The notes under the pieces were generated by a model. It saw nothing but the letters and a program-made list of their open reading frames with translations. It had not been told where the DNA came from and did not search any database. Below, one piece after another: positions 5,820-19,318 of a DNA stretch of 19,655 bases (position 1 is its first letter; every line of letters starts with the position of its first letter). Location of the stretch: IMG/VR virus record IMGVR_UViG_3300029577_000167, positions 1 through 19,655 of that record. One strand, 5' to 3'. Source of the DNA: a virus (taxonomy: Duplodnaviria > Heunggongvirae > Uroviricota > Caudoviricetes). Made by a program: the position numbers and the translations under genes.

Positions 5820-5857
5820 GTGCTATAGTCAGGCGCTTTTATATTTATGGAGTGAAT

Positions 5858-6556
5858 ATGAAAAATATCCTACTGGCATCATTGTTGGTGGCATCGCCGG
5901 CTGTATTTGCAGCCAGCTTTGACTGCCAAAAGGCTTCGGCAGAAATCGAACACAAAATCTGCGATAACGAACGCCTGTCAAAATTAGACGAACAACTTAG
6001 CTCTACCTATTCCAACGCACTCAAAGCAAACCCGGGGGACGCAGACGCCTTAAAGACGGTTCAGCGTCAATGGGTAAGTATGCGTGGAAAACTCACTGGT
6101 GATAAGACTCTGGAGTTGGCTTATCTAATCCAAATTAATGGCCTCAAGAGTTTGGATGGTTCGGCCAGCACTGCGGTGGTCAATGAGACACCAAAGCCTG
6201 TGCAGAAACAGCCTGAAGTTCAGGAAAAGACAAGCAAGGCAGACACAAAGCAGGCTGAGAGCGGTAAAAAGCTAACTCTGGAGTCATTCCGAGCTAAGTA
6301 TATTGAAGTTGACGGTGAATACTACAGCACGACATCCCTTCCCAGAGGGAGTTCGTTCTTGTTCACCTGCGCAAGTCGTATCGCAGATGACCAGGTGAAT
6401 ATTTGGAAGAAGGTGGCAGCCAAAGAGGGCAAGATCGATCTCTTCTTTGAACTTGAGAATCGAATACATACCGCAATGCTGAATGCCAATTTTCAGAAGC
6501 TAAATAGTGATTTAACTAAAACAGGCATTTGCGATCTGATTACTGCTGTTCCGTAA
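5858..6556 (+). CDS. secreted protein with LprI-like (DUF1311) domain
   Basis: Signal peptide MKNILLASLLVASPAVFA; FDCQKASAEIEHKICDNERLSKLDEQL...QRQW pattern typical of DUF1311 / lysozyme-inhibitor LprI N-terminal domain; GGAG 5 nt upstream of ATG at 5858 (ORF track starts at GTG 5852). Confidence 0.65.
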   Translation: MKNILLASLLVASPAVFAASFDCQKASAEIEHKICDNERLSKLDEQLSSTYSNALKANPGDADALKTVQRQWVSMRGKLTGDKTLELAYLIQINGLKSLDGSASTAVVNETPKPVQKQPEVQEKTSKADTKQAESGKKLTLESFRAKYIEVDGEYYSTTSLPRGSSFLFTCASRIADDQVNIWKKVAAKEGKIDLFFELENRIHTAMLNANFQKLNSDLTKTGICDLITAVP

Positions 6557-6564
6557 GCCAGATA

Positions 6565-6583
6565 AGGCCATTATTTGTGGCCT
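6565..6583. terminator. hairpin AGGCCA-ttatttg-TGGCCT, bidirectional terminator candidate
   Basis: Stem-loop between convergent genes 5858-6556 (+) and 6612-6815 (-); immediately followed by the palindrome TTAAACAATTTGTTTAA (6583-6599). Confidence 0.45.
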
Positions 6584-6611
6584 TAAACAATTTGTTTAAT
6601 TAGTGGTGTAA

Positions 6612-6815
6612 TTATTGGAATCCCAGGCGAACTAAATCCATTGGGCAGAACAGATCTTCCACACCTTCGATAGACACGCAGTCAGAGCGGCGTAATTGTT
6701 CTTCTGATTTGCCTTCTCCGCAGATTTCCTTGATGACTCCCGTTGCACCATTCGTTGCCACCATCACTCGGCTGCCGGTAGTGATAGTGTTACGGTTGCG
6801 ATCATAGGTCTTCAT
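6612..6815 (-). CDS. YdfZ-like small protein (67 aa)
   Basis: MKTYDRNRNTITTGSRVMV... resembles the E. coli YdfZ family as recalled; strong RBS AAAGGAGGAA upstream on the minus strand. Confidence 0.6.
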   Translation of the reverse strand: MKTYDRNRNTITTGSRVMVATNGATGVIKEICGEGKSEEQLRRSDCVSIEGVEDLFCPMDLVRLGFQ

Positions 6816-7002
6816 CGTTTCCTCCTTTCACATGGGTCAAATCAGGTTTCAAAAATTGCCGTTTTCCATGTAGGTGCGATTTGCAAAATCTCAAGCGCCA
6901 AAACAAATTGTTTTCACCATCTTGTTATTCAATTAACCCGTAAAGTTGACCAGTACCGTAATAAATACCACTGTTTATATGTGCAGTATTGCGAGGCGAG
7001 CA

Positions 7003-7269
7003 ATGGGCAGCAAGAATTCTAAATATGTGATCGTCTATAGGGGCGAAGCACTCAAGCACCTAATACCCGGACAGTTCGTTTTCTTCCAACGTGAAAAAGA
7101 ATACGGTGGGGGGTTCTGGCTTGGTAAAACGCATGAGGATGGGTTCGAATTTGTGCTGGAGCAACCCACTTCACTAAGTTACGGGCTTGCGTATCTGATC
7201 AGATTGTCGAGTGTCGAAGCCAGGTATATGGAGTTTGTTGATGACATAGACGACTTCAAACTCACCTAG
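7003..7269 (+). CDS. hypothetical protein (88 aa)
   Basis: ATG at 7003 preceded by GAGG; ORF track extends to 6946 without an RBS. Confidence 0.5.
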   Translation: MGSKNSKYVIVYRGEALKHLIPGQFVFFQREKEYGGGFWLGKTHEDGFEFVLEQPTSLSYGLAYLIRLSSVEARYMEFVDDIDDFKLT

Positions 7270-7310
7270 TCATCCCTTAAACATCTTGTTTTCTGCCTTT
7301 CGTTATTTGA

Positions 7311-7343
7311 GATAATAATACCAATAAGAAAACAAATTGTTTA
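7311..7343 (+). promoter_or_regulatory. conserved upstream cassette (type A), copy before gene 7355
   Basis: GATAATAATACCAATAAGAAAACAAATTGTTT, followed by AAGGAG and ATG at 7355. Confidence 0.55.
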
Positions 7344-7354
7344 AGGAGTTAATC

Positions 7355-7591
7355 ATGTTCGGAACCGCGAAAGAAATTATCGAAAAGCTGGAGAACTACC
7401 CAGAAGACGAGCCGCTGCTGATGGTGATGTGGCACAAGGAAGATGTAGGTGAAGGGCGACCAGACCTGACTGACGAACAGTGCGTTCAGGTTTTGCGAAA
7501 AATCAAAGAGTGCCATGATGCCAGCGTCGGCGTGAATTGGGATGTCATTTCTGACACGGCCAACATTCTGTTTCCAAAGGAGAAGGCATGA
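7355..7591 (+). CDS. hypothetical acidic protein (78 aa)
   Basis: AAGGAG RBS 6 nt upstream of ATG; stop overlaps the start of the next gene (ATGA). Confidence 0.6.
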   Translation: MFGTAKEIIEKLENYPEDEPLLMVMWHKEDVGEGRPDLTDEQCVQVLRKIKECHDASVGVNWDVISDTANILFPKEKA

Positions 7592-7908
7592 TGCTGAAAA
7601 TCACCGAATCGTATAAGACGGCGGTGATCAGCACCGCCCACGTCACGGCAGCGGATTCAGAACGGCTACCCATTGCCTGCTTCGACCCACTTACTGATCG
7701 CGGGTTGAATTGGGTACACGGTACACAGTATGGATGGATTGTTCGTGCTGGAATGCGAGGGAATGACTGGAAGGAAGAATTGCGTGATTACGGCATTTCC
7801 CAAGAGGCGATCTCTAACATACAGGCCATACGGGATGCCGGGTATGATTCGGTACAATTTGACTGTGATGCGGAGCTGGTGGATGGAATGCCAGCATGGG
7901 ATTGGTAG
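7588..7908 (+). CDS. hypothetical protein (106 aa), translationally coupled to upstream gene
   Basis: AAGGAGAAGG RBS; ATGA overlap with 7355-7591. Confidence 0.6.
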   Translation: MMLKITESYKTAVISTAHVTAADSERLPIACFDPLTDRGLNWVHGTQYGWIVRAGMRGNDWKEELRDYGISQEAISNIQAIRDAGYDSVQFDCDAELVDGMPAWDW

Positions 7909-7923
7909 ATATAACTACTAGCA

Positions 7924-8550
7924 ATGGCGGGAATAATTACCTGGAAAGTTGATATCATATACCCGCTTGTATTTCAAAATGGAATGGATGTAATGGAAAT
8001 CGATACTTTAGAAAAAAAATCAGTTAAAAACCTCTACGCGTGGCTTATAGCAATACTGCCGTTTGTTGTCAGCGTCCCCCCTGCTGAGTACGACAATTAC
8101 GTTATGGTGATTTCGTTCGTCATTGGGCTTGGACTGCTGGTCGCCGATCGCATGAATTTGACTGAGGCAGGCTATGAGCCACCATCATTCTTATGTGGGT
8201 TCTTTATCCCCCCTGTGTATCTCTGGAAACGAGCGACGGTTCTTGGAAGTAACCGACTGCTGTTTATCGTATGGATTGTTGCCTTTGCTGCATCATTTTT
8301 CGTGTATAGCTTCAACGCAGATTCAGCGCTTGAAGAAGCTGCTTGCCCTATAGTTACCACTATTCTGAAAGAAAATAACGGTTCAGAAGCATCTAAATGC
8401 ATGAAGGTAACAATTCAGGACAAAGTGACGGACAAGTTCTACAAAGCCACGGCTACACTGGATAACGGTAATGACATTAACATCACTATCGAAATGATCG
8501 GTGACGAGAATTTCTACGTTCGCGTGCCTAATTACTACCTAAACGACTAA
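7924..8550 (+). CDS. predicted membrane protein (about 3 TM segments; start uncertain, alternatives 7984/7993)
   Basis: Hydrophobic segments LYAWLIAILPFVVSV, VMVISFVIGLGLLVA, LLFIVWIVAFAASFFVY; soluble C-terminal region. Confidence 0.5.
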   Translation: MAGIITWKVDIIYPLVFQNGMDVMEIDTLEKKSVKNLYAWLIAILPFVVSVPPAEYDNYVMVISFVIGLGLLVADRMNLTEAGYEPPSFLCGFFIPPVYLWKRATVLGSNRLLFIVWIVAFAASFFVYSFNADSALEEAACPIVTTILKENNGSEASKCMKVTIQDKVTDKFYKATATLDNGNDINITIEMIGDENFYVRVPNYYLND

Positions 8551-8987
8551 CGGCTGCAACTCGTTGACATTGGCGGTCACAAATTGAGGATTTCTATAAG
8601 AGTCCGTTGATCGCCACTTCCCCCACCTCTCCAACCTACCCCAGCCCAGGGGTGACAAGGCATTTAAGCCAATTACACCCATAAGAAAACAAATAAATAA
8701 CACGTCAACGAAAAGTCAACGCTTTCCTCTGATTTGGTCTAAAAAGTTGACGTTTTCGCAAGCCATCTCTTATACCCAAAATCCTGCGCACCAGAATCCA
8801 TCTCCCTGCGACCAAAACGTCAAAAACGACTCGTGATATCACTCAAAAACAGAAGCGCTCAGAAGCGCTCCCGTTGCGTTATATTGGGCATCTAAACAAG
8901 TTGTTTTCAGGCATAAGAAAACAAGTTAACAACCCCCACAGGAAACCCAGAGACGCCATTACCCACAATCCCGGAAACACCCACCTC

Positions 8988-9073
8988 TTCCTGTCAGACT
9001 ACCGAAAAGACCCACCTCATTGCCCCAGGCTACAGACCACCCACCTAATATTCCCAGGCAACCGAGAACGCGG
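8988..9073 (+). repeat. three tandem 28-31-bp C/A-rich repeats (core CAGRCWACMGA...CCCACCT)
   Basis: Units 8988-9018, 9019-9046, 9047-9073; paralogous triplet at 12989-13074. Confidence 0.7.
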
Positions 9074-9646
9074 TTCGCACGCGCAAACCCCGATACGTCA
9101 TTACCCAATACACGGAGAAGAACAGCCAGAACGAAACCCCGGACAAACCCAGACAAGAACAGGAGCCGTCACAATCTCGTTTACCCACCATTACCCCGAA
9201 AGAGAGCGCAAATTCCTGAATAGCAGGGAACGCCATTACTTCATATGCGGAGAACAACTAAAGCGCCCTACTGCCATTACCCACACTTTCATCATTTCAC
9301 GTAAACGAAGAGAAAAGCGCACCTGCCATTACTCCATACACGGAGAAGAACACTCACCAAAACGACGAGAACAACCCAGACGAAAACACAGAGAAGAACC
9401 ACCTCAAGAAGAACGAAACCACATATGCCGGTAGAAAGAACAAACCACCCATTTCACCCAAAGGAATACTCGCCGTATAGAGCGTTATCAGAGGGAAGGT
9501 TTATGCCCACATAAGAGAGAAAATTCGTGGGAGGTATAAGTGGGAAGGGAAGGAGGGGTATCGCCACTTTTTCCGCATAAATTCAAGCCATAGTTTTCAT
9601 CCCCCGTAACGTCCCTTTCCACCCCTTCGGTCAGCCTTCGGGCCAT

Positions 9647-9825
9647 CCGGGAAAGCTATGTCCCTTTTCAGGAACGGGAGCGTCGCCGCAGGGAAAAGGC
9701 TTGAGGTTTTCAGGGAAACGGTGGGAATCCCGCTATACGAACCGGGGAAAGGCTGGCTGCCGGTCGGGAAACGGGTACATCCCGGTACAGAGTGAGGGAC
9801 GACTGCGGGAGCGGTGCGGGAAATC
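9647..9825 (+). repeat. GGGAAA(C/A)GG-type direct repeats, about 21-bp period
   Basis: CCGGGAAAGC 9647, CAGGAACGGG 9669, GCAGGGAAAAGG 9687, CAGGGAAACGG 9711, CGGGGAAAGG 9743, TCGGGAAACGGG 9763, GCGGGAAATC 9816. Confidence 0.65.
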
Positions 9826-10093
9826 TTCGGGAGTGCGCCTTACTCTTCACTCGCCTGAAAATCGCGGGGGAGTGTCATTCCCTCTCGTGCAGCTACTGGA
9901 CTCCATTCTGCCAGACCATCATTGGGTCTCAAGCTATTTCAGTAGGTTTTCGGGGAGAAGGATATTCTGCCCACCAGCCCCGTGGCGCGCGTAGAGCAGA
10001 ATATCGTAAATACTGGCTCCCGTGTCGTTCCCGGATATTCACTGCCCAGCCTGGCTTTCACGACATAAAATCCTTTTCCGCCTTTGTCTTATT

Positions 10094-10128
10094 GCGATAA
10101 TAACACCAACAAGTAAACAACATGTTTA
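10094..10128 (+). promoter_or_regulatory. conserved upstream cassette (type A) before gene 10160
   Basis: GCGATAATAACACCAACAAGTAAACAACATGTTTA; palindrome AAACAACATGTTT at 10115-10127. Confidence 0.55.
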
Positions 10129-10159
10129 GACGTTATATAAACGAAGTGAGGATGAAGAG

Positions 10160-10378
10160 ATGATTAAGATGCCTGTGACGGTTGAGGTGTGGGGCGTGGA
10201 TTCCCTGGCTGAGTGTCTGGATGCAGTGGGGCCGGAGTTGTACCGCAAGTTGTGGTCGTTCGTCCCGGCAGAAGGGGAATCGCCCAAAGGGAAGGATATC
10301 TGGCACCTGCTGAGTGAAGATGAAAAGCGGGAGCTGGTGGACGCGGTACACAGCGAGTTCCCGGGCGACGAAGATTAA
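10160..10378 (+). CDS. hypothetical small acidic protein (72 aa; 17 D/E vs 7 K/R)
   Basis: GAGG RBS 8 nt upstream; followed by hairpin terminator at 10385-10410. Confidence 0.6.
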   Translation: MIKMPVTVEVWGVDSLAECLDAVGPELYRKLWSFVPAEGESPKGKDIWHLLSEDEKRELVDAVHSEFPGDED

Positions 10379-10384
10379 GAGTGA

Positions 10385-10410
10385 GGCCACCAGCACGGTG
10401 GCTTTTGTCG
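10385..10410 (+). terminator. intrinsic terminator (GCCACC-agcac-GGTGGC + TTTTG)
   Basis: Hairpin and T-run immediately after the stop of 10160-10378. Confidence 0.6.
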
Positions 10411-10450
10411 CTATTAACCTCCGGGGCAGCGCAGCACCGTAACGATATAC

Positions 10451-10506
10451 TTTGTGGCCGTTTTCTTACTGGTATTGTTTACGCAATTCAGAAAACAACA
10501 TGTTTA
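10451..10506 (+). promoter_or_regulatory. conserved upstream cassette (type B, about 56 bp) before gene 10518
   Basis: TTTGTGGCCGTTTTCTTACTGGTATTGTTTACGCAATTCAGAAAACAACATGTTTA; near-identical to 10942-10997. Confidence 0.55.
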
Positions 10507-10517
10507 AGGATTGCGTT

Positions 10518-10847
10518 ATGTTTGCAAATATCGACATCAACCAAATCAAGAAAATGACTCAAAAAGAGTTTGACCAGTTTTATGAGTTAGAAGGTTGGTC
10601 TTCCACGCTGATCAATTCGCGCTGGGTGCTTGAGCTGATGACTCGTGATGATGCTCCTGCTTTGATTATTTGCGACCTGGGTGATGATGCTGACTTTATG
10701 GATATGAGCGAATTTTGTGTGGATACATACAACCGCAGCCAGAAGTACTACTTCACATGCGATAGCGAGAATGACGTGATTTCTAAGCTCTATCTTCACC
10801 TTGTCCAGCATTGGGACGTTCAGGAGTTCCTTGATGTATTCGCGTAA
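10518..10847 (+). CDS. hypothetical acidic protein (109 aa; 21 D/E vs 8 K/R)
   Basis: AAGGA RBS; ATG at 10518 (ORF track begins upstream at 10452, inside the cassette). Confidence 0.6.
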   Translation: MFANIDINQIKKMTQKEFDQFYELEGWSSTLINSRWVLELMTRDDAPALIICDLGDDADFMDMSEFCVDTYNRSQKYYFTCDSENDVISKLYLHLVQHWDVQEFLDVFA

Positions 10848-10941
10848 ACCCAACCAAAGCCAGCACCGCCTGCTGGCTTAACTTCTCTGTAGCCGCAGGG
10901 AAGAACCACCTTTAGATAATTCATGTGCCTGAGCAATATGC

Positions 10942-10997
10942 TTTGTAGCCGTTTTTACACTGGTATTATTTACGCCATTGAGAAAACAATTTGTTTA
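10942..10997 (+). promoter_or_regulatory. conserved upstream cassette (type B) before gene 11008
   Basis: TTTGTAGCCGTTTTTACACTGGTATTATTTACGCCATTGAGAAAACAATTTGTTTA. Confidence 0.55.
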
Positions 10998-11007
10998 CGG
11001 AGTGGTG

Positions 11008-11319
11008 ATGAATACTTCATTGGTGCTGGGTCTTGCTGAAGGTCAGGAGAGAAAAGAAAAACCAACCTTAATGGGGCATCTCACATTGCTGGATATCGTA
11101 GCGAATGGGACTTCTATCCGTCTGTTTCGTGAAAAAGCCATTACCTTCGACGCGGGCAATTTTACGCGCTATGTGATGGTAGTTCGTCGCCAGCGTGGAA
11201 GAGGGTGGATGTCGGTCCAGAAAATGTGGCCAGAGGACCAGCTTGAACTGGCGCTGATGGAAGCCAACCGTGTCGCCCAACAAGAGATCCAACGAGCGTC
11301 TGTTCAGGCGGTAGCTTAA
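11008..11319 (+). CDS. hypothetical protein (103 aa)
   Basis: GGAG 5 nt upstream of ATG 11008; terminator at 11354-11382. Confidence 0.55.
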   Translation: MNTSLVLGLAEGQERKEKPTLMGHLTLLDIVANGTSIRLFREKAITFDAGNFTRYVMVVRRQRGRGWMSVQKMWPEDQLELALMEANRVAQQEIQRASVQAVA

Positions 11320-11353
11320 ACATGTGCAAGCAGTAGTTAGTCGAATGTACGAC

Positions 11354-11382
11354 AGCCCCGCCAATCCTTCGGGGCTTTTTTG
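11354..11382 (+). terminator. intrinsic terminator (AGCCCC-gccaatccttc-GGGGCT + TTTTTT)
   Basis: GC-rich hairpin followed by a 6-T run. Confidence 0.7.
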
Positions 11383-11440
11383 TATTGTAAGTACTTACTT
11401 ATGATAATAAAATTAAAAATTAAACACTAAGGAGAGTGAA

Positions 11441-11836
11441 ATGACCGTTAAACGCGAAAATCTGACCCTGGATATGTATTATGCATCAGAGACGGAAAAT
11501 GGAGACAAAGTTGCAAAAATTACAATTGTGCTACGCGATAATGCCTCCGGCGAAGAAGTTCACACCAGTACCTTAACTCGCACCGGCGAGGCCACAAAGG
11601 GAAAATATTCGGTGCGTTACCAAAGCATCAGTAATGCTTCTGACCCTTTACTGATAAAACTGGAAACTCATTTCCGTGGCGCGGATCAGACGTTGTTTGA
11701 AAATTTGATGAAAAAGGTCGATGCGGTTTATACATCGAGTTTAAATACCAATAGTACCTGGATGGGACAACACGGTCTGCGAATAATCTCCGGCGAAAAG
11801 ATCGACACCATTGTCCCTGAAAGCGTATTCGCTTAA
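11441..11836 (+). CDS. hypothetical protein (131 aa)
   Basis: AAGGAGAG RBS; AT-rich leader containing the perfect palindrome GTAAGTACTTAC (11387-11398); terminator at 11847-11872. Confidence 0.6.
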   Translation: MTVKRENLTLDMYYASETENGDKVAKITIVLRDNASGEEVHTSTLTRTGEATKGKYSVRYQSISNASDPLLIKLETHFRGADQTLFENLMKKVDAVYTSSLNTNSTWMGQHGLRIISGEKIDTIVPESVFA

Positions 11837-11846
11837 TCCTCTTTGA

Positions 11847-11872
11847 ATGGCGCGTAAACCGCGCCATTTTCT
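11847..11872 (+). terminator. intrinsic terminator (ATGGCGCG-taaacc-GCGCCAT + TTTTCTT)
   Basis: Hairpin plus T-rich tail after stop at 11836. Confidence 0.65.
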
Positions 11873-11953
11873 TATTCCCGATAACAATTTGTTTTCTGCC
11901 TTATCTGATTTGTGAAAATGATTTCACTGAAGCAACTTAATAAGGATACCATC

Positions 11954-12328
11954 ATGGGACTTGATATCTATATCGAGACGCAGCCTAAAAACGATCTGAA
12001 TAACGAGGCATCCAGAAAGCAGGTTGCTTACTTCCGTAAGTTCAATGCGCTCGTTGGGTGGATGGAGCGCAACGTAGGTGAAGTCGAAAATTGTGAGCTT
12101 TTAGAATTAACGATGAATGACATTTGTTTTCTGAAGGCTCATTTGATGCACATAAACGAAAGTAATTGCGAAGTGTACTTACCTACCCGGGAAGGTTTTT
12201 TCTTCGGCAGTCAGGAGTACGATGAAGGTTACTGGCATGACGTGGATAAGCTGAAAAAACTTGTGGAAGACCTGATCAGGAACCACGACTTTCACAATAA
12301 CAGACTGACGTTCCGTGCCTGGTGGTAA
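11954..12328 (+). CDS. hypothetical protein (124 aa)
   Basis: AAGGA RBS before ATG 11954; shortened cassette copy (CGATAACAATTTGTTTTCTGCC) at 11871-11900. Confidence 0.55.
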   Translation: MGLDIYIETQPKNDLNNEASRKQVAYFRKFNALVGWMERNVGEVENCELLELTMNDICFLKAHLMHINESNCEVYLPTREGFFFGSQEYDEGYWHDVDKLKKLVEDLIRNHDFHNNRLTFRAWW

Positions 12329-12330
12329 AT

Positions 12331-12474
12331 ATGGGCGATTTCAAGAAACGCCTGAAGGAGAGAGCCGAGATGGTCAGAAAGCGAAACGCCTCTTCTGTCA
12401 TAAGATACGCAAGGCAGTTTAGTCGCAACAACAAATCAGTTGAGGAAAAGATCCTTAGCGTAATCGGGCGATAA
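12331..12474 (+). CDS. possible small basic protein (47 aa), starts 2 nt after the upstream stop
   Basis: MGDFKKRLKERAEMVRKRNASSVIRYARQFSRNNKSVEEKILSVIGR; below the ORF-track size cutoff; followed by hairpin 12481-12506. Confidence 0.3.
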   Translation: MGDFKKRLKERAEMVRKRNASSVIRYARQFSRNNKSVEEKILSVIGR

Positions 12475-12610
12475 TTATTAAGGCCACCAGCATTGGTGGT
12501 CTTAAATGACTTTTAATAACCGAAGGTTAGTTTGAAACCTGGCTATCAACTTCCAGAACCTTTCTTGTGTATTCAGCCTGTATTAACTTCTTTTATGCCT
12601 TATCTACACT

Positions 12611-12645
12611 GCGATAATTACACCAACAAGAAAACAATATGTTTA
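12611..12645 (+). promoter_or_regulatory. conserved upstream cassette (type A) before gene 12664
   Basis: GCGATAATTACACCAACAAGAAAACAATATGTTTA; palindrome at 12632-12644. Confidence 0.55.
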
Positions 12646-12663
12646 CGCAGTGAGGATATGCTC

Positions 12664-12945
12664 ATGACTGATTTCACCATTACCCCTAAAGCACAAAATG
12701 TATTCCTTGAATCATGGCTGGACTTGCCGGAAACAGAACAGCAAGAAATGGATCATGTGGAATATGACGAGCAGGTAAGCACGCGATTCTTCCACTTTGA
12801 GGGCTGCGTTTACGACATTGCCGACTTCATGCGAGATGACCGCTTCCCTGAATGGCACGCAAGCTATCCACTAAACGCCTTCGCCATGCTGATGATCCGT
12901 GTGGATGATTCAGGGGATACCATCGACATCGGTCTGCTCCACTAA
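12664..12945 (+). CDS. hypothetical small acidic protein (93 aa; 20 D/E vs 5 K/R)
   Basis: GAGG 8 nt upstream of ATG 12664; hairpin 12951-12977 after the stop. Confidence 0.6.
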   Translation: MTDFTITPKAQNVFLESWLDLPETEQQEMDHVEYDEQVSTRFFHFEGCVYDIADFMRDDRFPEWHASYPLNAFAMLMIRVDDSGDTIDIGLLH

Positions 12946-12988
12946 AGAGTAAGGCCACCAATGCTGGTGGCCTTAAATGACCATCCTG

Positions 12989-13074
12989 TTTCCCGCAGGC
13001 TAAAAACACCAACCTCTTACCTCCAGGCAACCGACAAACCCACCTGTTCCCGTCCGGCTACCGCAACTTTCCAC
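12989..13074 (+). repeat. three tandem about 29-bp C/A-rich repeats, paralogous to 8988-9073
   Basis: TTTCCCGCAGGCTAAAAACACCAACCTC / TTACCTCCAGGCAACCGACAAACCCACCTG / TTCCCGTCCGGCTACCGCAACTTTCCAC; CCAGGCAACCGA core matches 9055-9066 exactly (12/12). Confidence 0.7.
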
Positions 13075-13094
13075 TTTGACGCCTTATTCGTACA

Positions 13095-13130
13095 ACGATA
13101 ATTAACACCAACAAGAAAACAATTTGTTAT
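13095..13130 (+). promoter_or_regulatory. conserved upstream cassette (type A) before gene 13150
   Basis: CGATAATTAACACCAACAAGAAAACAATTTGTTAT; a possible -35 TTGACG at 13075-13080. Confidence 0.55.
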
Positions 13131-13149
13131 TTACGATAAGGAATTAATC

Positions 13150-13632
13150 ATGAATTTTATCGCTACTGTAAACGCACCCGCACATGGCAATATCGCTGTA
13201 ACGTTCTCTGATATTGAAAAACGAGTACTTGGTGCATGGCGCGACAATGAGACGGTAGAACTGTCAGCACAAGAAAAATGCATTATTGCACGCGACATCA
13301 TTTGCAAACGTCGTTACTCACGGGTAATTGAGAAAGCGTATGTCGCAAATTCTGGCTTCGGAACATTTGTCTTCCCGGTACGCTCCGGGCGATTCTGCCA
13401 GTCCAAGCTGATTGAGTTCGCTACGCAGATTTCTGTCTGGATTAAAACTCAATCGTCGTTCAAATTTTCCGACGATGAAGCAGTATCGCAGGGGATGCGG
13501 ATCGCCAACAATGCAATAAAATGCAAAAACATTACGTATGCCGCTGGCGTTGACACATGGAAACTGTTTTGCGCTAACTTTATGCTGAATGTATACGCAA
13601 GCAACCGCATCCACATCCTTGATGGCGTGTAA
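13150..13632 (+). CDS. hypothetical protein (160 aa)
   Basis: AAGGA RBS; hairpin GGGCC-agaaac-GGCCC + TTTCTCT at 13641-13662. Confidence 0.6.
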   Translation: MNFIATVNAPAHGNIAVTFSDIEKRVLGAWRDNETVELSAQEKCIIARDIICKRRYSRVIEKAYVANSGFGTFVFPVRSGRFCQSKLIEFATQISVWIKTQSSFKFSDDEAVSQGMRIANNAIKCKNITYAAGVDTWKLFCANFMLNVYASNRIHILDGV

Positions 13633-13677
13633 CTGAGAAGAGGGCCAGAAACGGCCCTTTCTCTATAGCCACCAGCT

Positions 13678-13818
13678 GCCGCAGGGAAATTTTCAGAAAC
13701 GGCGAGGAACGCATTCATGAGCCGACGGGAAACGGCCAAGATTTTTTCGGGAAACGGCGGGGGTCGCCTTTATGTAGAAAACTGAGCGGGAGAAACCCGG
13801 AATCGCGCCAGAAATTGC
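13678..13818 (+). repeat. second cluster of GGGAAACGG-type repeats, about 22-bp period
   Basis: GCCGCAGGGAAATTTTC 13678, CAGAAACGGCG 13694, CGACGGGAAACGGCC 13723, TTCGGGAAACGGCGG 13747, GCGGGAGAAACCCGG 13785, CGCCAGAAATTGCG 13805. Confidence 0.6.
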
Positions 13819-14231
13819 GTAGCGGCGCTGGGGTAGCGCTGGTGGGGGTTTCAGCCCCTGGGCCATCCAGATAGCTTTCGCTATGTGATTATGTGAATCC
13901 GTGGGTAAATCACTGTAAGCGCGTACACGTTGCCCAACGTGGCAATCATATGCGAGCGGATACAAAACAACACAAAGAGCCGATCCGCGCCGACAAATAA
14001 ACGCGGATCACATAGCAAGACTAAAAGCCAATGATTAACCATACTCTATAGCGCAATATAACGCGTTTTAAGCGCGTTAATGTGTTAAGTAATGTGTATG
14101 TACTAACAAGGATATAAAAGCGCGTCTATGGCGTTATTTTGGTGCTTATTTTTATGTTGTTGGAGCGAGTTAAAGACAATAAAAAACGCGCTAATGATGG
14201 CGCGTTATGGTGGGAGTATTGGAAACGAAAA

Positions 14232-14250
14232 AAGCGCCCATAGTGGGCGC
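14232..14250 (-). terminator. 19-bp perfect palindrome AGCGCCCATAGTGGGCGCT, terminator for gene 14257-14487
   Basis: Flanked by AAAAAA on the plus strand (a U-run on the minus-strand transcript); identical copy at 14507-14525. Confidence 0.6.
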
Positions 14251-14256
14251 TCGATT

Positions 14257-14487
14257 TTATTTGTGTAAACTAATTTTGAATCCCATTTCTACAAACGCTT
14301 TTAACATTAAAAATATATCAGCGTCATTCACGTCTGCTTTTTTTCGCTCCTGGTCGTTCAATAAGTCAATTTTGCGCGTTGTTTCATTTATAAACTCGAC
14401 TGCGCGCCCAGCGATCCCAGCGATCCCAGCGATGCGATTAACATAATATTCATTATGGACGTTAACGCCAGCGATAAGAACAAACAT
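14257..14487 (-). CDS. hypothetical small protein (76 aa) containing IAG-IAG-IAG from a 9-bp tandem repeat
   Basis: AAGGAG RBS 8 nt upstream on the minus strand; low-GC region. Confidence 0.5.
   Translation of the reverse strand: MFVLIAGVNVHNEYYVNRIAGIAGIAGRAVEFINETTRKIDLLNDQERKKADVNDADIFLMLKAFVEMGFKISLHK
14407..14433. repeat. perfect 3x tandem repeat of CCCAGCGAT (in frame inside ORF 14257-14487)
   Basis: Units at 14407-14415, 14416-14424, 14425-14433. Confidence 0.9.
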
Positions 14488-15510: not shown

Positions 15511-16038
15511 TTAAAACGGTAAAATCCGTTCGACCCAATCGAACATGGCGACTGTCTTCCTACCGTCCCCCATGTTGAGTGTGACCTGACAAGCGTCAAC
15601 GCCTGAAGACACCCCCTCAATTTCACGGCCATCCGCCATGTAGACCCTTATAGACTTCTGCATCTCATGGGCCTGGCGACAAATTTTGAAGAAATCACGG
15701 CGAGATGGCCGATTGTCCACATAGTCTGGGTGTATCGTTGTCCGACCCGTGAAGTCGTGTGCAATGCCTTCTGTCACACCTGATTCAATCGTGCTGATTC
15801 GCTCAAGTGGGAGCCTTATACGATTATCTTTGTCGAACGGGGCAGGGCAAAGGTCGACCTTGTTGCGTGACGACATGAGACCCTGAACATACATGCAGAA
15901 CACCTGACCATCTTCCATCGTGACCCTTACAGGAATAAGAGACTTGCGCCAGAACATCAGCGCTTTCTCCACGTTGGTGTAATCGCGCGGCCAGACTTCT
16001 GCAGGAATCCCGTAGGTGATGTCAGTAATATTCGTCAT
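15511..16038 (-). CDS. hypothetical protein (175 aa) with internal duplication of an RVxMxDG module
   Basis: Start ATG at 16038 lies 2 nt after the upstream stop (ORF track extends to 16080). PVRVTMEDGQVF...LERISTIE and SIRVYMADGREI...FDWVERI look like tandem copies. Confidence 0.5.
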   Translation of the reverse strand: MTNITDITYGIPAEVWPRDYTNVEKALMFWRKSLIPVRVTMEDGQVFCMYVQGLMSSRNKVDLCPAPFDKDNRIRLPLERISTIESGVTEGIAHDFTGRTTIHPDYVDNRPSRRDFFKICRQAHEMQKSIRVYMADGREIEGVSSGVDACQVTLNMGDGRKTVAMFDWVERILPF

Positions 16039-16042
16039 ATCG

Positions 16043-16465
16043 TCACAGTGTCGTTGGTAAGATATCGATGTCACCAGCATTACTGGTGAACACCCGGAAG
16101 ACTTTCGTCTCGCCAGCTTTGGTAATCGTCTCGCGTTCCTGACGAGCAGGATTCAGTGCGCACAGCCCAGCGTCTTCGAGTGAGGCGCCAACAATCCATT
16201 CTCCGGCATCCAGATGAAAAGTGACTTTTTCACCTGTTTCCAGTTTTGCAACGGTTTCGCCATTGATGAAGATCGATGCGTCGCAACCGGCGCCCACCAT
16301 GCTTTTATCTCTCATAACCACCAGCGTCGATGCCGCCGGAGATTGGTATTTGAATATTCTGGTCTGCGGTGCTGGCTTTGCCTCAGAGACAGGAATAGGA
16401 CGAGATTGACATGCAGTGATAAGTAACGCGGAGGCAGCAACCAGAGGAAGTAATACGTGTTTCAT
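16043..16465 (-). CDS. predicted lipoprotein (140 aa)
   Basis: MKHVLLPLVAASALLITAC: signal peptide with lipobox LITAC; ORF track start at 16501 is upstream of the likely Met. Confidence 0.6.
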   Translation of the reverse strand: MKHVLLPLVAASALLITACQSRPIPVSEAKPAPQTRIFKYQSPAASTLVVMRDKSMVGAGCDASIFINGETVAKLETGEKVTFHLDAGEWIVGASLEDAGLCALNPARQERETITKAGETKVFRVFTSNAGDIDILPTTL

Positions 16466-18430: not shown

Positions 18431-19318
18431 ATGTATTGTATCAAAAATATGGATGTGAAAATTACGATTCTACAGGTGGAAGTCGCGAACCTGCGTCCGA
18501 ACCCCTGGAATACCAACTCCGTTGGGGCGCAAAACTTCGAAAAACTGAAAGGTTCCATCGAAAAGTTGGGCTTTTTTAAGCCAATTCTGGCGCGAGAGCT
18601 GGACGGCGGCATTTTTGAAATTCTCGGTGGCGAACATCGCTGGCGTGCCGCGATGGAGCAGGGCATTTCAACGGTTCCCGTCATCTCCGTGGGCAAAATT
18701 AACGACCTGGTGGCCAAACAGATGTCCCTCGTCGACAACGAGCGCTACGGCGAAGACGATCAGGTCGCTTTGCAGCGCTTAATCGAAGAAATCCAGTCTG
18801 AAATCGACTACCGGTTGTCCGATATCGCCCCGTATGACGACGAAATGGCGGCAACACTCGCCAAAGCATCCGTTATCGATCTTGAAGCGCTGGAAGCGCT
18901 CTCCCGTGGCGATGACGAGCCGGTCGATGAGGACAAACGCGAGAAAACCGAGCGAGTCGGCGCTGAACACCAGACGATGCGCTTCAAGGTGACGTTTGAT
19001 GCGTCAGATCGGGTCATCGAACAGAAGACTCTCGAAACCCATGAGGTCGTCGAGTTTGAGCTGTCGAGTGTGTTCGACCTGATGGGCGTGCAGCTGCCGT
19101 ACCGCCAGATCATCAAAAACACATGCCCGTGGAGATACCGCGGACCAGAGTGCGGCTACACCGGTCCGTACTTCGACAAAAACAACCAGCAAACCACCAT
19201 GTCAGGAGCGGATTGCTGCACGAAACGTTACGACTCATGCAACGCACGGCGCAACTACTTTGCCAATGGCGTAATCCACTTTGGCGGGTTCATTGGGGCA
19301 ACGCGTTATGGGCAATAG
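18431..19318 (+). CDS. ParB-like N-terminal domain protein with C-terminal lambda gpL-like cysteine module
   Basis: N-terminus LRPNPWNTN...ILARELDGGIFEILGGEHRWRAAMEQGISTVPVI...VDNERYGED fits the ParB/Srx fold (GxxRxxA); C-terminus NTCPWRYRGPECGYTGP...CCTKRYDSC...FGGF parallels the lambda minor tail protein L C-terminus (NTCTWTYRGDECGYSGP...CSKCLSGC...FGGF) as recalled. Start uncertain (18431 or 18449). Confidence 0.75.
   Translation: MYCIKNMDVKITILQVEVANLRPNPWNTNSVGAQNFEKLKGSIEKLGFFKPILARELDGGIFEILGGEHRWRAAMEQGISTVPVISVGKINDLVAKQMSLVDNERYGEDDQVALQRLIEEIQSEIDYRLSDIAPYDDEMAATLAKASVIDLEALEALSRGDDEPVDEDKREKTERVGAEHQTMRFKVTFDASDRVIEQKTLETHEVVEFELSSVFDLMGVQLPYRQIIKNTCPWRYRGPECGYTGPYFDKNNQQTTMSGADCCTKRYDSCNARRNYFANGVIHFGGFIGATRYGQ

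Follow-up and report, generated by a model that had tools for sequence, protein, structure and literature searches.

A conserved, strand-asymmetric non-coding locus with phased direct repeats in SSU5/pHCM2-type phage-plasmids

Repeat-bearing non-coding control regions are familiar in phages and plasmids. In the satellite phage-plasmid P4, ori and crr are clusters of short iterons separated by about 4.5 kb; the two are both required in cis and are bound by the alpha primase-helicase. In the iteron plasmids P1, F and RepFIB, two arrays flank rep. Here we describe a stretch of 1,609 bases (positions 8551–10159, called the locus below) within 19,655 nucleotides of the IMG/VR virus record IMGVR_UViG_3300029577_000167; this whole 19.6-kb stretch, which was analysed throughout, is referred to as the window, and we assign it to an SSU5/pHCM2-type phage-plasmid. 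The locus is non-coding and under purifying selection, its two strands differ in composition, it carries phased direct repeats that recur in a second array outside it, and it is independent of the plasmid replicon. What is unusual here is the size of the locus, its conserved 900-nt C/A-rich asymmetry, a conservation above that of the neighbouring genes, and the bipartite array. Our tentative reading is that it may be a conserved cis-acting control locus, in which a Rho-loading leader is combined with a protein-bound array for phage-mode replication or control.

The principal features are as follows (window coordinates; ORF, open reading frame).
8581–9470, + strand: stretch skewed to C over G and to A over T, ORF-free and weakly folding; candidate untranslated leader or Rho-loading zone
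8955, 9097, 9232, 9273 and 9325 (8955–9352), + strand: five YGYCATTAC modules
8978–9068, + strand: three tandem units of about 30 nt, CACCCACCTC...CAGGCTACCGA, at 31/29-nt spacing
9470–9535: segment C, variable, with indels
9540–9579, + strand: purine-tract/pyrimidine-tract hairpin (9547–9573) with ATCGCC in the loop
9646–9790, + strand: array 1, four to six direct GGGAAAMGG-type repeats at 20–22 bp spacing with one 31-bp gap
13641–13775, + strand: array 2, absent from the original prediction; a terminator-like hairpin, then three to four RGRAAACGG repeats at 31/22 bp spacing

As in P4, there are two clusters of direct repeats, each in one orientation, which lie about 4 kb apart, bracket an early operon and are away from a classical Rep gene; the element here is likewise both phage and plasmid. 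The repeat is, however, a different one from that of P4 (TGTTCACC), and no gene for an alpha-like primase-helicase lies between the arrays. The likeness to ori/crr is one of arrangement only, known here from sequence. P1 (oriR/incA), F and RepFIB likewise have two arrays of direct repeats spaced by about two helical turns. Unlike in those plasmids, the cognate RepA and its iterons are elsewhere in the window, the repeat core is 9–10 bp rather than 17–22 bp, and the locus is without an AT-rich unwinding element, a DnaA box or an IHF site.

The original prediction held the locus to be free of credible ORFs, and this was confirmed: no frame is kept across clades and there is no codon periodicity. 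When ORFs of at least 45 amino acids were compared among 36 non-redundant homologues, those present in the window here (8874–9434 and 9701–9994 on the + strand, and others) were conserved in neither position nor frame. The variability phase ratio is 1.0–1.6 almost throughout, with one mild peak (1.95 at 8811–8930) that has no start codon. A real gene next to the locus gives identities of 0.69/0.81/0.40 by codon position. The conserved frame and third-position variability that characterise a protein-coding sequence are thus not found in the locus.

Identity of the locus to three deep clades is 0.66, 0.71 and 0.86, and identity at the third codon positions of the neighbouring 131-amino-acid gene in the same three pairs of clades is 0.40, 0.31 and 0.43. 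Because the locus diverges far more slowly than these positions, we conclude that it is under strong purifying selection. Comparative data revealing no more than unconserved junk would have counted against the original prediction; the comparison decisively gave the opposite result, a strongly conserved locus. This bears directly on the possibility that the locus is decayed coding sequence or a neutral spacer, and that its repeats are leftovers of slippage or recombination between cassettes. Relics of promoter cassettes do occur inside the locus, SSU5 and the Cronobacter-type relatives have lost or replaced its right-hand third, and truncated copies bounded by insertion sequence (IS) elements are found in large Klebsiella and Shigella plasmids, all of which would fit decay. 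The conservation data nevertheless contradict it. The locus is better conserved than synonymous sites and than the neighbouring gene as a whole (nucleotide identities to the Klebsiella clade of 0.71 for the locus and 0.47 for the 131-amino-acid gene), its length is steady at 1.51–1.61 kb across clades, and the cores of its motifs are kept while the spacers drift. We regard neutral decay as very improbable.

The locus is widely distributed in related elements. It matches Salmonella phage SSU5 at 93.6% identity, with 78% of its length matched. In PLSDB, about 660 plasmids match by megablast and 859 by blastn, of which 698 carry the locus at ≥80% coverage, with identity down to 65%. The hosts of these plasmids are Klebsiella, Escherichia, Enterobacter, Salmonella, Citrobacter and Cronobacter. 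Among 5,426 complete E. coli genomes the locus is present in 215, where it is plasmid-borne every time and never chromosomal. A search of GTDB for a wider distribution gave only four species genomes. The replicons that occur together with the locus are IncFIB, rep_cluster_488 and rep_cluster_763, and because it is found with three types of replicon we conclude that it is part of the conserved core of the phage rather than of the plasmid replicon. Its left edge lies within 10–25 nt of the stop codon of the upstream gene, whichever gene is present, and these genes differ between relatives; its right edge is the promoter of the downstream operon.

We note that the accessory genes upstream are highly variable in the relatives while the non-coding locus is constant, and that in several of them (L006–L009 and L053) metG, encoding a full-length methionyl-tRNA synthetase, lies 1–1.5 kb upstream of the locus. 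The 131-amino-acid gene is also present in unrelated linear 54-kb Klebsiella phage-plasmids that do not have the locus. Partial copies, covering 8557–9317 or 8551–9588 and bounded by IS5 or IS26, are present in the large Klebsiella and Shigella plasmids (L054, L055); they were considered as a clue to function and set aside as mere IS-bounded fragments. In most RefSeq relatives, PGAP (NCBI) places no annotation over the locus, and the 'hypothetical proteins' placed there by submitters vary by record (SSU5_108 and SSU5_109 in SSU5, CYRAN_103 and CYRAN_104 in Cyrano). Among the matching records of phages, plasmids and E. coli, only such stray calls and the IS3 element of one plasmid are annotated over the locus, and no paper treating it was found in the literature searched.

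The C+A-rich, G-poor character of one strand, which had been proposed from inspection of the sequence, was borne out, and proved to be almost continuous over 8581–9470. On the + strand this stretch has 316 A, 277 C, 147 G and 150 T, which gives C/G = 1.88 over 890 nt. C is at least 1.8 times as frequent as G in nearly every 100-nt interval of it, and there is no comparable stretch elsewhere in the window. The composition of segment B (8930–9470) is kept in all clades, with G at 13–17% and T at 12–15%. A composition of one strand that is kept for 900 nt across lineages with saturated synonymous sites points to a function of the single strand, most simply as RNA.

Rho-dependent terminators and Rho utilisation (rut) sites, such as lambda tR1 and those in the long untranslated rho, mgtA and corA leaders, resemble this stretch in being C-rich, G-poor, unstructured, untranslated and located after an operon without an intrinsic terminator. 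The stretch differs from a rut site in being about ten times longer and far more conserved, and in having specific repeated modules. A length of at least about 80 nt of C-rich, G-poor, poorly structured RNA, as expected of a rut site, is present in 8581–9470. The predicted folding energy of 8925–9535 is −98.7 kcal/mol for 611 nt, or −0.16 kcal/mol per nt, with z = 0.07 relative to shuffles. Scans for intrinsic terminators on the + strand found none in 6500–11845; cassettes further right end in terminator hairpins. The suggestion of Rho-utilisation character in the original prediction is upheld as regards composition, given a C/G of 1.9 over 890 nt, the weak folding and the missing intrinsic terminator on the + strand. 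The flanking genes at 5852–13632 are all rightward. From the gene direction, the missing upstream terminator and the + strand hairpin, we infer that the C-rich stretch is transcribed as the + strand.

Within the C-rich stretch the repeated GCCATTAC...CGGAGAAGAAC modules are conserved. GCCATTAC occurs five times in the window, four of these in the region, compared with 0.52 expected, and none of 200 shuffles reaches five. The copies in the region are at 8955, 9232, 9273 and 9325, with a variant, GTCATTAC, at 9097. Four of the five module sites are kept in all four deep clades, and conservation rises to 96–98% at 9321–9360. Three of the modules are followed by AYRCGGAGAASAAC (9106–9124, 9241–9259 and 9334–9352). 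The first two of the tandem units are 87–94% conserved across clades. The coordinates that had been given for these repeats were accurate to about ten bases: the copies of the CATTAC module are real, but the one placed at 9314 is at 9325, and the three tandem units exist, but at 8978–9068 rather than 8988–9073.

To the right of segment C, segment D (9536–10060) consists in order of the purine tract GTGGGAAGGGAAGGAGGGG, ATCGCCAC, a pyrimidine tract, the GGGAAAMGG array, and a more variable G+C-rich part. In the hairpin at 9547–9573, 88.5% of cells are paired, compared with 59–79.5% for slid partners, and at two pairs both sides have changed. The hairpin fits the + strand only, because its many G·U pairs are C·A mismatches on the other strand; the comparative support for it is modest, as the arms also pair one register over. 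Its 3′ arm (9568–9576) is complementary to each of the three CGGAGAAG modules. Such pairings of module and anti-module are preserved in 95–97% of cells, compared with 44–67% when slid, and show double changes from G-C to A-U at 9115/9573 and 9250/9573, which are suggestive only, since they represent one or two events between two clades. The alignment contains 17 conserved helices of at least 7 bp, compared with 0–4 in column-shuffled alignments.

These pairings would be explained if about 8930–10060 were a single gene for a long regulatory RNA that is made early after induction and acts by base pairing or protein titration. In one variant, the three CGGAGAAG modules and the single complementary CUUUUUCCG would form alternative pairings, as do P4 seqA/seqB/seqC and P1 c4 RNA; in another, the unstructured C/A-rich half would sequester Rho, Hfq or another RNA-binding protein. 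The position of the region mimics a gene cassette, with an operator and promoter relic at 8891–8931, then non-coding sequence, then the next cassette. The strand asymmetry conserved in all clades, the hairpin specific to the + strand, the kept pairings with their double changes, and the excess of conserved helices are all in its favour. There is also a likeness to P1/P7 c4 RNA, P4 CI RNA (seqA/B/C) and N15 CA RNA, which belong to phage-plasmids and have repeated untranslated elements with a single complementary partner. Unlike those immunity RNAs, the locus has no predicted small stable RNA or RNase P-type structure, the complementarity amounts to only 8–11 nt between purine and pyrimidine tracts, and no antirepressor gene lies immediately downstream.

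Other results count against such an RNA. Rfam 15 gave no match in the window at gathering scores and, up to E = 5, only a chance match to a long non-coding RNA (E = 3.1); a search for tRNA and tmRNA found none. Folding energies on both strands show no excess over shuffles (z = 0.19, −0.28, 0.07 and 0.40). As there is neither an Rfam match nor an excess of folding energy, a large structured RNA is unsupported. RNAalifold on blocks gave nothing decisive, and a naive covariation scan was swamped by the purine/pyrimidine low complexity. The double changes, as noted, come from one or two events in two clades; no promoter was found; and both the 22-bp phasing of the repeats in array 1 and the position of the second array behind a terminator fit DNA better than RNA. 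We therefore consider the long RNA doubtful, if still a possibility to be reckoned with. Three more specific RNA functions were tried and rejected. Long-range pairing of the purine tract (9540–9560) with the C-rich repeats has best partners that differ between clades. For a sponge of the host small RNA GcvB, acting as a C/A-rich target mimic, the mean energy of pairing with the R1 seed was −16.1 in the region and −14.7 ± 4.1 in the window, with the best sites elsewhere. For a CsrA sponge, only one of the three module copies retains its GGA in other clades.

The GGGAAA(C/A)GG direct repeats are real and conserved, and phased as the original prediction described. Exact GGGAAAMGG occurs five times in the window, always on the + strand (9691, 9713, 9766, 13727 and 13749) and in two clusters only. 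With degenerate copies at about 9649, 9671 and 9744, the spacings in array 1 are 22, 20, 22, 31 and 22 bp. The core RGRAAAMGG is kept at each position in every clade while the spacers of 12–13 bp drift; Cronobacter-type relatives (L086 and L094) have four copies at exactly 22 bp.

The region of array 2 is paralogous to 9602–9820. The local alignment score is 83, compared with 34 ± 6 (maximum 55) in 200 shuffles, a difference of about 8 standard deviations, and the two regions have in common the sequences GCCGCAGGGAAA, TTTTCAGRAACGG and GGGCCATCC. Array 2 is 93–97% identical even in the clade in which the main locus is at 66%. It is situated between convergent genes, and some 250 bp beyond it the DNA is AT-rich. 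In a complete relative of 113.7 kb there is no third array, and one isolated exact copy is present besides the two arrays. The arrays are about 4 kb apart and bracket early operons of small genes (seven small ORFs, 10160–13632). These ORFs fall in PHROG families of unknown function with no match in Pfam or NCBIfam, and the one compared with PDB sequences gave no significant match. Because array 2 sits behind a terminator-like hairpin, it is likelier that the arrays act on DNA than on RNA.

The conserved non-coding DNA around array 2 (13641–14200) has some further characteristics. The hairpin loop is itself a copy of CAGAAACGG and is followed by three to four GGGAAACGG-type repeats; there is also a Chi site and an inverted repeat GTGATT...AATCAC, the AT-rich DNA extends over 14020–14290, and the whole lies between convergent genes. 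GGGAAACGG is present as direct repeats in the unrelated IMG/VR viral contigs L085, L096 and L132. In L085 its core also forms the palindrome CCGTTTCCCGGGAAACG, which we take to resemble a ParB/Noc-type site. The same DNA-binding specificity may be in use in other viruses.

The proposal that the repeats are iterons does not hold in the ordinary plasmid sense. RepA (Rep3_N/Rep3_C; 1111–2166, − strand) is the sole Rep3-type protein and lies 6 kb away. A different 21-bp repeat, CTATAGTGGTTGTTCTACTCT, forms two arrays of about 3.5 copies each (2254–2325 and 2633–2708), which are probably the true iterons of the plasmid. The array has no Rep-like gene next to it, as no flanking ORF has a Rep-like match in Pfam, PHROGs or NCBIfam, and the core of the repeat is only 9–10 bp. 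If the repeats were nevertheless iterons or incompatibility repeats of the RepA replicon, setting its copy number, their direct orientation, their spacing of about 21–22 bp and the two-array layout known from P1, F and RepFIB would be accounted for. This is contradicted by the separate CTATAGTGGTTGTTCTACTCT arrays, by the distance of about 25 kb between repA and the locus in the complete relative, and by the presence of the locus with three replicon types, and we give it almost no credence. A possible DnaA box, TTACCCACA (8/9 match), was also rejected, as the conserved part of the module is GCCATTAC and not the box.

Both type Ib/II centromeres and the recognition sites of small terminase subunits typically consist of short, helically phased repeats in several arrays. 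The arrays could accordingly be binding sites for a ParB-family protein or for the small terminase, with a role in centromere function, silencing or pac-type packaging rather than in replication. The element encodes proteins with a ParB_N domain (18431 onward), and CGGGAAA presumably resembles a half-site of the Noc-binding site (NBS), and GAAAC a half-site of parS; the core also occurs both as direct repeats and as a palindrome in contig L085. There are Chi sequences near both arrays, which carries little weight because Chi, at 11 sites, is overrepresented throughout the window. In contrast to parS and NBS, which are palindromes of 14–16 bp, the sites here are direct repeats only and have no adjoining par operon, and no palindromic parS-like site was found in the window. 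P1-type parS boxes (ATTTCAC, TCGCCA) are present but not conserved. In the complete relative a candidate ParA-type ATPase is about 43 kb from the locus and the terminase genes about 12 kb. Pac sites are normally in or next to the small-terminase gene; in pCUVET18-789.1, the terminase genes are at 74.5–76.4 kb and the locus at 88.8–90.5 kb, so the two are not adjacent. We give a partition or packaging site a low but by no means negligible probability.

Two observations made in passing concern the same proteins and sites. The ORF at 18431–19318 (+ strand) encodes a fusion of a ParB N-terminal domain (residues 14–103) with the C-terminal half of phage minor tail protein L (residues 195–293). This fusion implies that the packaging, head and tail module has been wholly deleted, and hence that the plasmid in the window is a defective phage-plasmid. 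Chi (GCTGGTGG) is present in 11 copies on both strands of the 19.6-kb window, where by our own estimate about 0.6 would be expected by chance, and this excess suggests selection for RecBCD protection.

We return to the reading that we tentatively favour, of a Rho-loading leader next to a protein-bound array. The first part (8560–9530) would be an untranslated C-rich, G-poor and nearly unfoldable RNA, transcribed rightwards like the flanking + strand operons. By loading Rho, this RNA would terminate transcription of the upstream accessory operon, which lacks an intrinsic terminator, and would insulate the next early operon, with its own promoter at 10070–10159. The GCCATTAC/CGGAGAAGAAC modules, with the complement at 9568–9576 and the hairpin, may modulate termination in the Rho zone. 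The second part (9640–9800) would hold short direct repeats, aligned along a single face of the helix, as binding sites for a protein encoded by the element. Array 1 and its paralogue at 13641–13775 would then form a bipartite cis element for phage-mode (lytic) replication or control, similar to P4 ori/crr. We infer transcription, Rho action, the identity of the binding protein and the role in replication from the DNA sequence.

A number of results weigh against this reading. No promoter was identified in the locus, and sites found by a promoter scan are no more numerous than in shuffles. In the transcriptome of an LF82 lysogen, CYRAN_103 and CYRAN_104, the spurious ORFs within the locus, are not among the expressed prophage genes, which is weak and indirect evidence. 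The conservation, which reaches 98% at 9321–9360, is far above what a rut site needs. The E. coli relative CP099103.1 has an IS3 element inserted within the locus, SSU5 is without 9812–10060, and the number of array repeats varies between clades. With regard to an origin in particular, only the 9–10-bp core is conserved between array repeats; searches of the flanking ORFs against Pfam, PHROGs and NCBIfam, and of three of them against PDB sequences, gave no match to a characterised family; the DNA around array 1 is 58–61% G+C, with no adjacent AT-rich unwinding element; 8400–10300 contains no exact DnaA box and no IHF consensus; and the cumulative GC skew has its extremes at repA and no turn at the locus. 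Whatever probability is not taken up by the readings described here goes to some other explanation.

The remaining features of the locus are mostly in its left part.
8561–8618, + strand: left boundary block, TTGACA...GGCGGTCAC...TATAAG...GATCGCCAC; 87–89% column identity in 36 homologues
8671–8700, + strand: degenerate promoter/operator cassette 1, with CATAAGAAAACAA kept and the GATAAT −10 lost; 93% conserved
8703–8757, unstranded: AT-rich conserved block, 92–94% conserved, with two direct copies of GTCAAC 11 bp apart and an inverted GTTGAC
8891–8931, + strand: operator palindrome TCTAAACAAGTTGTTT and collapsed cassette 2; 94% match to the operator at 10115–10130, 1.2 kb away
9961–10005, unstranded: 10-bp inverted repeat or hairpin, with the Chi complement CCACCAGC in the loop
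10070–10159, + strand: intact promoter/operator cassette and ribosome-binding site of the downstream operon, TGCGATAAT and AAACAACATGTTT; recurs elsewhere in related loci

Segment A (8561–8925) thus consists of the sharply conserved boundary block, the AT-rich block and two cassette relics. Pairing between UGGCGGUCA and UGAUCGCCA in the boundary block is uninformative because it never varies. The GTCAAC and GTTGAC copies of the AT-rich block form an imperfect inverted repeat of 11 bp, after which there is TTGACG-18-TATACC. The inverted repeat at 9961–10005 shows two compensatory changes between E. coli clades and is lost in the Klebsiella clade. We also observed that 8594–8625 and 9535–9575 share TATAAG...ATCGCCACTT and a pyrimidine tract, giving a direct repeat that spans about 940 bp; the copy at 9535–9575 has an extra purine tract inserted.

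Intact cassettes have the consensus order TGnGATAAT, ACACCAACAAGA, palindrome AAACAAnnTGTTT, AAGGAG, ATG, and are located 5′ of at least six + strand ORFs or operons. Cassette 1 was judged by comparison with the intact cassettes at 7285, 10070, 10448, 10939, 12587 and 13072. The 'partial promoters' that had been reported at 8671–8700 and 8894–8931 are real but degenerate copies of this cassette, and both are without the TGnGATAAT −10 element, for which reason they provide weak evidence for a start of transcription. The palindrome AAACAAnnTGTTT has about 11 copies (6585, 6901, 7279, 7330, 8894, 10115, 10493, 10984, 11882, 12632 and 13117), usually located before small + strand ORFs, between the TGnGATAAT −10 and the ribosome-binding site. 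It is likely to be the operator, acting as DNA or as a hairpin in the 5′ untranslated region, of a global regulator of the early genes.

Elsewhere in the window, 15511–16080 (− strand) encodes a protein with a very strong match to Flag1_repress (E = 1.9e-95), the family of FljA, the phase-1 flagellin repressor; FljA is an RNA-binding translational repressor. At 14407–14433 there is a perfect tandem repeat of three 9-bp units, CCCAGCGAT.

Phage-plasmids of the SSU5/pHCM2 type, which carry resistance genes, are often found in clinical Klebsiella, E. coli, Enterobacter, Salmonella and Citrobacter. If the locus is a lytic origin or control site, it would provide a handle for plasmid curing or for blocking induction, for the construction of minimal replicons, and for recognition of the family from DNA. 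A long unstructured regulatory RNA, should the locus encode one instead, would be of a type unusual for bacteria. There is a slight chance that both apply, in that an unstructured C/A-rich RNA of about 1 kb with repeated modules captures Rho, Hfq or S1 on induction while its transcription fires a bipartite lytic origin formed by the paralogous GGGAAAMGG arrays; if so, one non-coding locus would couple host takeover to the start of phage-mode replication.

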